Shown piece by piece: positions 4,613-6,033 of a stretch of 64,000 nucleotides of DNA; position 1 is the first letter of the stretch, and every line of letters starts with the position of its first letter. The notes below the pieces were generated by a model. That model did not search any database, was not told the DNA's origin, and saw only the letters and a program-made list of their open reading frames with translations. Source of the DNA: a virus (taxonomy: Duplodnaviria > Heunggongvirae > Uroviricota > Caudoviricetes); IMG/VR virus record IMGVR_UViG_2877251553_000001, positions 10,207 through 74,206 of that record. The stretch is one strand, 5' to 3'. The position numbers and the translations under genes were made by a program.

Positions 4613-4831
4613 ATGTTAACCAGAAGGGAAAAAGACATGCTAAAACAGCAAGATATGACAGAAACGGCGAAAGTTGTTTTTAATGAATTAAGCATCGAAC
4701 CGGCAACAGTCGGGGAGATTGCACAAAACACATACCTTTCACGCGAACGCTGTCAGTTAATACTGACCCAGCTGGTTATGGCGGGGCTGGTAGATTACCA
4801 GTTCGGCTGTTACAGACGCCTTCAGCAATGA
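4613..4831 (+). CDS. Small hypothetical protein, possible DNA-binding
   Basis: 72-aa ORF between tR' and the methyltransferase gene; weak support. Confidence 0.3.
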   Translation: MLTRREKDMLKQQDMTETAKVVFNELSIEPATVGEIAQNTYLSRERCQLILTQLVMAGLVDYQFGCYRRLQQ

Positions 4832-4980
4832 AGGGCTTTTAATTTGTGAAAATGGGCGGCTGGTGGGTGTTGGTAGCACCTGCCAGCCATTCGCTCATGC
4901 CTACTGGTCACAAGCGAACCACGGCCCACTGCTTTAGCGCAAAAGCAGAGTGAGCCTACCAGAGTTACGCTTACTGATCC

Positions 4981-6033
4981 ATGAAAAACACTGTAAAAAT
5001 AAACAGTATTGATTTAATCAACGCTGATTGCCTGCATTTTATTCAGTCCCTGCCTGATGATTTCATTGACCTGATTGTTACCGATCCGCCTTACTTCAAG
5101 GTGAAACCCAACGGTTGGGACAATCAGTGGAAAGGGGACGAAGATTACCTTAAGTGGCTGGACCACTGTCTGGCCCAGTTCTGGCGGGTGTTGAAACCTG
5201 CCGGAAGCCTTTACCTGTTCTGTGGGCATCGCCTGGCATCTGATATTGAGATCATGATGCGTGAACGTTTCAACGTGCTTAACCATATCATCTGGGCGAA
5301 GCCGTCCGGACGTTGGAATGGGTGTAATAAAGAAAGTCTGCGCGCATATTTTCCTGCCACAGAGCGCGTTCTGTTTGCTGAACATTACCAGGGGCCATAT
5401 CGCGGCAAAAGTGACGGCTATGCGGCAAAAGAAAGGGAACTCAAACAGCACATAATGGCACCGCTGATATCGTATTTCAGGGATGCTCGTGCCGAACTGG
5501 GTATAACGGCAAAACAAATTGCCGAAGCCACAGGTAAGAAAAATATGGTTTCCCACTGGTTTGGTGCCAGTCAGTGGCAGTTGCCGAATGAGGCTGACTA
5601 TCGGAAGTTACAGGCACTGTTTTCCCGTATAGCGGCAGAGAAGTTTCAGGAACAACAACTGGAACAACCACACCACCAGCTGGTGGCGTCTTATGATTCA
5701 CTGAATCGCAAATATTCTGAATTGCTGGATGAGTTTAAATCTCTCCGGCGCTATTTCTCCGTATCAGTCTCCGTGCCTTATACCGATGTCTGGATGCATA
5801 AACCCGTTCAGTTCTACCCGGGTAAACATCCGTGTGAGAAACCGGCGGATATGCTCAGGCAAATAATCAATGCCAGTAGTCGACCTGGTGATCTGGTTGC
5901 TGATTTTTTTATGGGATCCGGTTCCACAATAAAAGCAGCAATGGCGTTGGGGCGTCGGGCCTTAGGTGTTGAGCTTGAGTCAGAGCGGTTTAACCAGACA
6001 GTGAAAGAGATAAACGAGCTGGTGGGGAAATAA
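4981..6033 (+). CDS. DNA methyltransferase, N6-adenine/N4-cytosine class (orphan)
   Basis: DPPY catalytic motif near N-terminus and FMGSGST AdoMet motif near C-terminus; no adjacent nuclease gene. Confidence 0.8.
   Translation: MKNTVKINSIDLINADCLHFIQSLPDDFIDLIVTDPPYFKVKPNGWDNQWKGDEDYLKWLDHCLAQFWRVLKPAGSLYLFCGHRLASDIEIMMRERFNVLNHIIWAKPSGRWNGCNKESLRAYFPATERVLFAEHYQGPYRGKSDGYAAKERELKQHIMAPLISYFRDARAELGITAKQIAEATGKKNMVSHWFGASQWQLPNEADYRKLQALFSRIAAEKFQEQQLEQPHHQLVASYDSLNRKYSELLDEFKSLRRYFSVSVSVPYTDVWMHKPVQFYPGKHPCEKPADMLRQIINASSRPGDLVADFFMGSGSTIKAAMALGRRALGVELESERFNQTVKEINELVGK

Follow-up and report, generated by a model that had tools for sequence, protein, structure and literature searches.

In phage Mu, Com is a translational activator that opens the mom leader, and the D12-methyl RNA motif of Rfam is a candidate cis-regulatory RNA found upstream of Dam-class methyltransferase genes in a phage-like context. 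Here, we describe a cassette that shares features with both, namely a small gene, a conserved structured leader RNA and a gene for an apparent M.EcoGII-type adenine methyltransferase, in a stretch of 64,000 nucleotides (nt) from a virus of the class Caudoviricetes (IMG/VR record IMGVR_UViG_2877251553_000001, positions 10,207 to 74,206). This whole stretch is referred to as the window, and its features are collected in Table 1.

M.EcoGII is a beta-class enzyme of 349 amino acids (aa) from a prophage of E. coli O104:H4 C227-11 that methylates adenine irrespective of the neighbouring sequence (Murray et al. 2018, PMC5778455), and its substrates also include RNA and DNA:RNA hybrids (PMC5778455). 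Both M.EcoGI and M.EcoGII are prophage-borne, unexpressed in the lysogen and deleterious once expressed (PMC5778455, PMC12707154), which has a parallel in Mu Mom, a toxic DNA modifier whose production is confined to the late phase and which stays silent in lysogens (PMC12707154). Models of M.EcoGII show a dimer whose recognition domain, a four-helix bundle with a helix-turn-helix, is inserted in the Rossmann fold (PMC11551740). Two reconstructed ancestors, Anc291 and SUPREM (Anc284), have been expressed and were reported to be active on DNA and RNA in a largely non-sequence-specific manner (PMC11551740), and the enzyme of phage 1720a-02 has been named ‘very similar’ to M.EcoGII (PMC5778455).

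In our reading, to which we assign a probability of roughly 70%, the locus is a late-operon cassette with a non-specific, protective methyltransferase that would be gated by the antiterminator Q. Its most unusual feature, which went unnoticed in the initial annotation of this DNA, is the structured RNA between the small gene and the methyltransferase gene.

An M.EcoGII-type methyltransferase

The 350-aa methyltransferase matches the profile PF01555 (N6_N4_Mtase) with 145.9 bits (E 2.2e-42; cut-off 26.7), whereby profile positions 1–220 of 221 are spread over residues 29–341, with a large insert between the catalytic halves. Its DPPY motif occupies residues 35–38 (nt 5083–5094) and FMGSGST residues 310–316 (nt 5908–5928). 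The profile thus extends over both halves, with DPPY N-terminal to FxGxG, and the order DPPY, central domain, FxGxG places the enzyme in the beta class. The solved relatives found by sequence, RsrI, MboIIA, CcrM and DpnA, belong to this class as well (E 1e-12 to 1e-23), and all four align to the N- and C-terminal catalytic halves only, leaving the central domain unmatched. Further profile matches are PADLOC MTase_II (6e-151) and phrog_67, and the ratio of non-synonymous to synonymous substitution rates (dN/dS) is 0.06–0.09 relative to phage homologues. The initial annotation had placed a 350-aa methyltransferase with DPPY and FMGSGST motifs between tR′ and the holin gene, an assignment confirmed by the open reading frame (ORF), the motifs, the terminators and the holin profile.

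Over its full length, the enzyme is identical to M.EcoGII at 280 of 349 residues (80%), with no gap before residue 270 and hence a gap-free alignment of the central recognition domain (residues ~160–237). Identity is 89% to Anc291, 81% to the phage 1720a-02 enzyme and 71% to SUPREM; the sequences of M.EcoGII, Anc291 and SUPREM were machine-read from the supplement PDF of PMC11551740 and contain a few reading errors. With M.EcoGII and M.EcoGI, the window enzyme shares a length of 349–350 aa, the succession of DPPY, a central, presumably helix-turn-helix, domain and FxGxG, and its location on a prophage, while some 70 substitutions set it apart from M.EcoGII; Anc291 and SUPREM are synthetic sequences, unlike the natural allele described here. 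From sequence, the enzyme can be assigned to the M.EcoGII family with high confidence. It can also be predicted, with good confidence, to be non-sequence-specific for adenine, because it is bracketed by tested enzymes that were reported as non-specific (M.EcoGII, Anc291 and SUPREM).

This assignment bears on how the gene should be studied. Since the family lacks a recognition motif and is silent in the lysogen, no discrete motif would be expected in the lysogen methylome, even with a functional gene. The initial annotation had proposed to compare the methylomes of a lysogen and a cured strain and to take the absence of an additional motif as refutation. A negative lysogen methylome is the expected outcome, so both the check and the refutation would mislead, and recognition of the family spares this experiment.

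Table 1. Features of the cassette, its surroundings and the remainder of the window, with the evidence for each.
Feature	Position	Strand	Evidence or remarks
Dam-family gene, cut by window start	1–465		PF05869; same prophage, next to rusA
Antiterminator Q, 120 aa	2668–3030	+	Phage_antitermQ PF06530, E 1.5e-45; 57% identical to Q of 1720a-02
Conserved segment, putative pR′ and Q-loading site	4419–4493	+	Near-invariance
tR′-type intrinsic terminator	4494–4515	+	Terminator scan; CCGCCGTCGAGCGG then T7
Gene for 64-aa winged-helix protein	4637–4831	+	dN/dS, synteny, AlphaFold2
Hairpin over small-gene stop codon	4819–4834	+	Terminator-like site in scan; CCTTCA-GCAA-TGAAGG, then U-rich run
Conserved structured leader RNA, 140 nt, to methyltransferase AUG	4844–4983	+	Covariation, covariance model
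P0	4853–4857 / 4924–4928	+	5-base-pair helix UGGGC/GCCCA closing three-way junction
P1	4858–4869 / 4877–4888	+	Hairpin in three-way junction
P2	4890–4899 / 4909–4918	+	Hairpin in three-way junction
P3	4929–4935 / 4942–4948	+	Hairpin after junction
P4	4949–4955 / 4969–4975	+	Variable hairpin, A-rich loop
M.EcoGII-family beta-class N6-adenine DNA methyltransferase (predicted), 350 aa	4981–6033	+	Pfam PF01555, identity to M.EcoGII
Intrinsic terminator between methyltransferase and holin genes	6040–6065	+	Terminator scan; GGCCACGTCAGGTGGCC then T5
Holin, P21-type, first lysis gene	6100–6315	+	Phage_holin_2_1 PF04971, E 2e-35; RefSeq name essD
M.EcoRII	34050–35564	+	DNA_methylase and DNA_meth_N domains
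R.EcoRII, 404 aa	35559–36773	-	EcoRII endonuclease structure 1NA6, E 8.5e-243
Second Dam gene	59581–60267		PF05869; other phage-like region

The leader RNA and the small gene upstream of it

The 149 nt between the small gene and the methyltransferase gene are conserved above the synonymous sites of both genes, and among them AAATGGGCGGCTGG stays unchanged all the way from phages of E. coli to those of Morganella. The leader comprises a three-way junction with near-invariant junction nucleotides and two further hairpins, and this architecture is also obtained when divergent leaders are folded separately for minimum free energy. Where the methyltransferases are 55–75% identical, the hairpin sequences of the leaders are wholly different, yet the hairpins occupy the same places. 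In a MAFFT alignment that was not fitted to structure, 84% of the cells are paired, as compared to 30–45% with slid partners, and 11 pairs have changed on both sides, a number reached in none of 500 shuffles. A covariance model built from this alignment finds one match each in 81 of the 87 methyltransferase loci, without exception on the gene strand and just 5′ of the gene, and a single strong match (138.5 bits) in the window. Among 71 distinct leaders, 87% of the cells are paired, 31 of 33 pairs have changed on both sides and covariation reaches 0.41 versus 0.13 after shuffling, figures that lean towards structure because this larger alignment was fitted to the covariance model. We regard the structure as very probably real.

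Besides Escherichia, Klebsiella and Morganella phages, which carry the leader, the model matches N15, two Vibrio phages and an Aeromonas phage, but neither phiO18P nor a minority lineage of the same methyltransferase family with a different, GC-rich leader (IMG/VR L239, L242, L246, L250, L264 and L271); this leader is motif-less, ~100 nt long and, once more, located directly after a terminator. A structured leader at this position is suggested to be a general requirement of the methyltransferase family. In N15 (L318; leader at 2368–2503 and methyltransferase gene at 2501–3589), gene 52 is annotated from record position 41621 and homology to the methyltransferase begins at 41387; the stretch from the annotated late terminator to this earlier point is taken up by the leader. 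Judging from this homology, the annotated start of gene 52 is probably too far downstream. Another observation concerns a GATC (Dam) site at 4976–4979 that precedes the start codon of the methyltransferase gene by one base (CTGATCCATG) and is kept in most enteric-type leaders but not in those of the Hafnia, phiKO2 and N15 types; a similar sequence, G(G/A)TCAC, is maintained in the loop of P2 (4907–4912).

A search of positions 4400–6100 against Rfam 15 gave no match at the gathering threshold and, at E ≤ 10, only chance-level matches to Vault and fiv_FSE elsewhere, while ARAGORN detected neither a transfer RNA nor a transfer-messenger RNA. As consulted here, the M.EcoGII and SUPREM papers (PMC5778455, PMC11551740) mention neither an upstream leader RNA nor the small ORF. 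No earlier description of the leader was found in the literature, that on D12-methyl included, although this coverage did not extend to subscription journals and a prior description is possible. A pattern scan of genome contigs with TGGGCGGCTGG N{14,26} CCAGCC proved too loose: among the at least 120 matches listed, nearly all were chance occurrences in GC-rich genomes, and L057 (Citrobacter) alone was relevant. An identity with one of the known prophage small RNAs near pR′, i.e. AgvB, AsxR or Pas, was rejected as well, given that these have no link to a methyltransferase; they are short convergent small RNAs that lie downstream of moron genes or beside sialate esterase and holin genes.

The small ORF upstream had been regarded as only weakly supported, a view that does not hold: the gene is under strong purifying selection and syntenic in seven genera. 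Its dN/dS is 0.04–0.07 at a synonymous divergence (dS) of 0.5–1.7, as determined against 1720a-02, phiP27 and a Klebsiella phage, a constraint like that on the methyltransferase, and its position is kept in phages of Escherichia, Shigella, Klebsiella, Citrobacter, Hafnia, Morganella and Providencia. There are at least three allelic types, 46–54% identical to one another, which reassort independently of the methyltransferase allele, and a large protein collection holds 314 clusters of the small protein, with the exact 64-aa sequence on 875 contigs. Translation probably starts at ATG 4637, which would make the previously listed 72-aa version from 4613 too long by 24 nt, since AAGGG precedes position 4637, while the ATG at 4613 is ACG in 1720a-02 and without a Shine-Dalgarno sequence. 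The N-terminus MLKQQDM that follows from ATG 4637 is conserved, and RefSeq likewise annotates the 64-aa form. The hairpin over the stop codon has an equivalent in 1720a-02 and phiP27, where it is followed by T6.

The AlphaFold2 model of the small protein (predicted local distance difference test score, 90) has the order H-H-H-beta-beta and a winged-helix topology. In Foldseek, it matches generic winged helices only (E ~1e-3), including the DNA-binding domains of MarR and IclR, the domains through which O-methyltransferases dimerise and the SelB domain that binds an RNA hairpin. The ORF is thus a real gene, and its product is confidently predicted to be a winged-helix protein. NCBI labels it a ‘TrmB family transcriptional regulator’ and PHROGs assigns it to phrog_331, of unknown function. 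All of its Pfam matches (E ~1e-3) are below threshold, with 19.2 bits for TrmB (cut-off 25.6), 18.5 for MarR_2 (cut-off 27) and a further one to DprA_WH; these profile scores do not place the bare 64-aa protein in the TrmB or MarR families, even if it may act similarly. Full-length regulators of this kind also have parts for dimerisation or sensing.

The arrangement can be compared to three known control systems. Mu com-mom has in common with it a gene for a small RNA-binding protein and a structured mRNA leader immediately upstream of a toxic modifier, and the likeness is extended by Aeromonas and Vibrio relatives of the cassette that carry a Com-like zinc-ribbon ORF. In Aeromonas PhAER-1 (L316, 2362–2505), this ORF belongs to the Com family by its PF10122 score (35.3 bits, cut-off 22.9, E 8e-9), while the CxxC...CxxC ORFs of Vibrio, L281 (~1365–1490) and L308 score below the cut-off; that of L315 is located at 2362–2478. 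One record labels the zinc-ribbon ORF between leader and methyltransferase gene ‘RNA polymerase subunit P’. The window cassette has no Com-type (PF10122) ORF but a winged-helix ORF, which is located upstream rather than downstream of the RNA, and Mom differs in not being an S-adenosylmethionine (SAM) methyltransferase. C protein/methyltransferase pairs of Type II systems also have a small DNA-binding-type protein encoded just upstream; however, C proteins, of about 80 aa, are of the Xre helix-turn-helix type, use C-boxes and time a nuclease, whereas the small protein is a predicted winged helix without an Xre-family match in Pfam, and no nuclease is present. D12-methyl, too, is a structured 5′-leader RNA of genes for DNA adenine methyltransferases, but the window leader has no Rfam match at E ≤ 10 and the enzyme class differs.

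As to function, we propose, with moderate to low confidence, that the leader is a cis-acting RNA which limits translation of the toxic enzyme or makes it conditional. At -5 to -12, all leaders are without a canonical Shine-Dalgarno sequence, the only similar sequence, AAGG, lying within the 3′ arm of P4, and folding and scans revealed no terminator after the leader and no clear switch that sequesters a Shine-Dalgarno sequence. A protein of the phage, a metabolite or the methyltransferase may serve as trigger; candidate ligands are the 64-aa winged-helix protein, the Com-like zinc ribbons found elsewhere, the methyltransferase, or a small molecule such as SAM or S-adenosylhomocysteine, although a riboswitch version is improbable. 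The putative class would be dedicated to M.EcoGII-type enzymes in temperate phages of Enterobacterales, Vibrionales and Aeromonadales, and would gate translation or stability. That the window leader truly regulates the methyltransferase and at the same time represents a hitherto undescribed, uncatalogued class of cis-regulatory RNA is a tentative proposal, with odds somewhat short of even.

A late-operon cassette and competing explanations

Q is the regulator expected to turn the cassette on. In phages with the same Q family, DNA equivalent to 4419–4515 is located directly 3′ of the Q stop codon and near-invariant, from which we infer that this segment spans tR′ together with pR′ and the Q-loading site; here, a 1.3-kilobase insert at 3059–4387 parts it from Q. 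The terminator at its end is conserved across relatives and aligns with an annotated terminator of SfV (L001, 3001–3036), and the terminator behind the methyltransferase gene corresponds to the second one annotated in SfV. Downstream, the order of genes is holin, DUF1327 gene, endolysin and Rz, and the position of the holin gene shows the cassette to be that part of the late operon which is nearest to the promoter. In every relative examined, N15 included, the cassette is found between Q and the holin gene, following the former and preceding the latter, and in N15 it is preceded by an annotated late promoter and terminator. Such a location would fit production of the enzyme only in lytic growth, while progeny DNA forms. 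The ~120 nt from tR′ to the start of the small gene (4516–4636) are near-invariant even among phages with differing small-ORF and methyltransferase alleles, and no ORF or RNA family accounts for this conservation.

The 1.7-kilobase module is present over at least 80% of its length in 2151 of 5426 complete E. coli genomes (~40%, at megablast sensitivity), as well as in SfV, cdtI, mEp460, phiP27 and many Stx1- and Stx2-converting phages; the orf47–orf48 region of SfV is 96% identical to this part of the window, and phage 1720a-02 has the same cassette of small ORF, leader and methyltransferase gene. Among 50,697 phage records, 49–95 carry the module, and many lambdoid phages are without it. A first search for relatives returned only copies with 98–100% identity, and diverse loci were retrieved using the distant ancestor Anc250 as query. 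The methyltransferase family lies beside lysis genes, always near the promoter within the late or lysis region, in lambdoid, N15-like, VHML-like Vibrio, Aeromonas and P2-like (phiO18P) phages; in phiO18P, the gene sits within the lysis cassette itself.

According to the explanation that we favour, 4419–6065 would be the first cassette in the late operon of a lambdoid prophage, consisting of pR′, tR′, the 64-aa gene, the leader, the methyltransferase gene and a terminator, with the holin gene next. In the lysogen, transcripts from pR′ would end at tR′ and the enzyme would not be made. Upon induction, Q would render RNA polymerase resistant to terminators, such that the cassette would be transcribed along with the genes for lysis and morphogenesis. 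The methyltransferase would then methylate the N6 of adenine in nearly any context on replicating phage DNA, and packaged genomes would be pre-protected in the next host against many Type I, II and III systems sensitive to adenine methylation. Because the enzyme is toxic, a post-transcriptional restraint would be added: the leader would constitute a weak ribosome-binding region that probably needs a late-phase factor or condition for translation, with the winged-helix protein as one candidate factor by analogy with Mu Com-mom. The initial annotation had suggested an anti-restriction or epigenetic function, of which it is the anti-restriction part that gains from membership in the M.EcoGII family, the missing nuclease and the presumed Q-dependent late transcript.

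Several observations weigh against parts of this explanation. The central target-recognition region is ~77% identical to M.EcoGII by a count on the alignment, so some sequence preference is possible, and a simple consensus scan did not score a pR′ promoter at 4419–4493. The anti-restriction benefit of M.EcoGII-type enzymes is assumed rather than demonstrated in the literature (PMC5778455). With respect to the RNA, the AUG of the start codon is not consistently paired in predicted folds and its accessibility is mixed. Long-range pairing of the 3′ half of P2 with the nucleotides that precede the AUG is not supported, as the 69% paired were no better than shuffles or a slide by -1, and a closing helix proposed by RNAalifold (AUGGG/UCCAU), which would hide the start codon, was rejected as a general feature since it is not kept in N15-type leaders. 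Finally, although 29 of 72 distinct leaders have a winged-helix ORF upstream and five a zinc-ribbon ORF between RNA and methyltransferase gene, 38 have neither a winged-helix nor a Com-like ORF nearby, and 26 of these 38 lie within 30 nt of the T-run of a terminator. The winged-helix protein hence cannot be the universal partner of the leader; rather, these counts indicate that the RNA is the constant partner of the methyltransferase and that the small proteins are optional additions.

Competing explanations of the enzyme concern its specificity and its purpose. A site-specific or strongly context-biased orphan adenine methyltransferase that recognises one short motif in the manner of Dam or CcrM, which was the implicit model of the initial annotation, could be argued from the fact that most solved beta-class relatives (RsrI, MboIIA, CcrM and DpnA) are site-specific, that ~20% of the residues, including some in the central domain, differ from M.EcoGII, and that M.HaeV (BA) and M.CsaII (AB) are near-non-specific enzymes with a residual preference (PMC5778455). 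Yet the solved site-specific enzymes match only the catalytic halves and not the central domain, where the window enzyme aligns to M.EcoGII without gaps, and at 71% identity the more distant SUPREM was still reported as non-sequence-specific; with 80% identity to M.EcoGII and 89% to Anc291, a single-motif enzyme is unlikely. Slightly less so, but still improbable, is a main role in phage development or host takeover instead of protection from restriction, be it through methylation of RNA or of replication and packaging intermediates, regulation of late genes, blunting of other defences or host shutdown. Such a role would agree with the activity of M.EcoGII on RNA and DNA:RNA hybrids, with the toxicity of the enzyme, with the conservation of the gene beside lysis genes in very different phage types and with life-cycle roles of other orphan phage methyltransferases, e.g. 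P1 Dmt in packaging (PMC12707154). However, the sources consulted contain no evidence for it, and the cassette is dispensable in so far as many lambdoid phages do without it, with a presence in only ~40% of E. coli genomes and in 49–95 of 50,697 phage records, which fits an accessory protective function.

Two further alternatives address the surroundings of the gene. The methyltransferase might be the modification half of a system whose nuclease is encoded nearby, for instance by the 273-aa protein at 3566–4387 (minus strand), as the two unassigned genes ~600 base pairs upstream lie on the opposite strand and have no Pfam or PADLOC match. These genes make up an AT-rich insert (28–37% GC) that is found in merely 10 of the 5426 complete E. 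coli genomes, as opposed to 2151 for the module, its place is taken by unrelated cargo in other phages and a non-specific methyltransferase would be unusable as a self-marker, so that this idea is effectively refuted by distribution and retains a negligible probability. In line with this, the initial annotation's statement that the enzyme has no nuclease partner is borne out by the neighbouring genes: holin, DUF1327 and endolysin genes follow, the upstream insert is without a nuclease signature in Pfam and PADLOC, and flanking cargo varies between phages. The spacer in front of the methyltransferase gene, in turn, might be a DNA recombination linker, a tiny coding ORF or a promoter instead of a functional RNA. 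Lambdoid phages do share conserved boundary sequences, a 108-nt coding sequence is annotated inside the spacer in phage 569R4, and some variants have an extended -10-like TGTGAAAAT at its 5′ edge. Still, pairing is kept while hairpin sequences are fully replaced between lineages, and G-U pairs are tolerated on the methyltransferase strand only. A tiny ORF was rejected since loop indels of 1–2 nt break the frame and substitutions are compensatory; a promoter was rejected since the leaders of 1720a-02, phiP27 and the N15 type do not keep the -10-like motif, and a transcript starting from it would miss the 5′ strand of P0. A spacer without a functional RNA thus appears quite unlikely.

Other elements in the window and implications

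The insert between Q and the putative pR′ is absent from most phages with the same cassette. Its genes, on the minus strand, encode a predicted membrane protein of 160 aa and the 273-aa protein mentioned earlier, which belongs to phrog_23561 of unlisted function. Elsewhere, the slot is occupied by two other minus-strand genes (EcPF20 and 569R4) or a GIY-YIG gene (phiP27), and thus resembles a hot spot at which accessory genes, perhaps for defence, are carried.

The prophage had been credited with three distinct methyltransferases, namely the present one, a Dam-like and a Dcm-like enzyme. While this count broadly stands, the Dcm-like enzyme is not an orphan, as M.EcoRII is encoded beside R.EcoRII, the two genes being convergent, and from sequence the segment 34050–36773 is taken to be a complete EcoRII Type II system. 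It is located just past a tail-fibre assembly gene and a GIY-YIG gene and is apparently cargo of the prophage end. Rfam matches at 39923–39989, 48058–48285, 51018–51134 and 32604–32802 comprise int-alpA, C4 antisense RNA and isrK, ALIL, and IS009; the int-alpA RNA adjoins a 404-aa ORF of integrase size, and ALIL is a frameshift pseudoknot (IS3-type). Together with the second Dam gene, these matches point to one or more additional mobile elements or prophages in the right half of the window.

Taken by itself, the methyltransferase gene is ordinary, being another allele of a very common prophage enzyme, and M.EcoGII is already available as a commercial reagent and serves as a tool for chromatin and RNA mapping. 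The frequency of the module nonetheless implies that ~40% of complete E. coli genomes hold a latent enzyme that would be able to methylate most adenines. What is new at this locus is a conserved folded RNA that is in no catalogue (Rfam 15) and may represent a new RNA family, and together with the winged-helix gene it provides a concrete, testable handle on how a toxic enzyme is controlled. Should the leader prove transferable, it could also become a tight control element for the expression of toxic methyltransferases.

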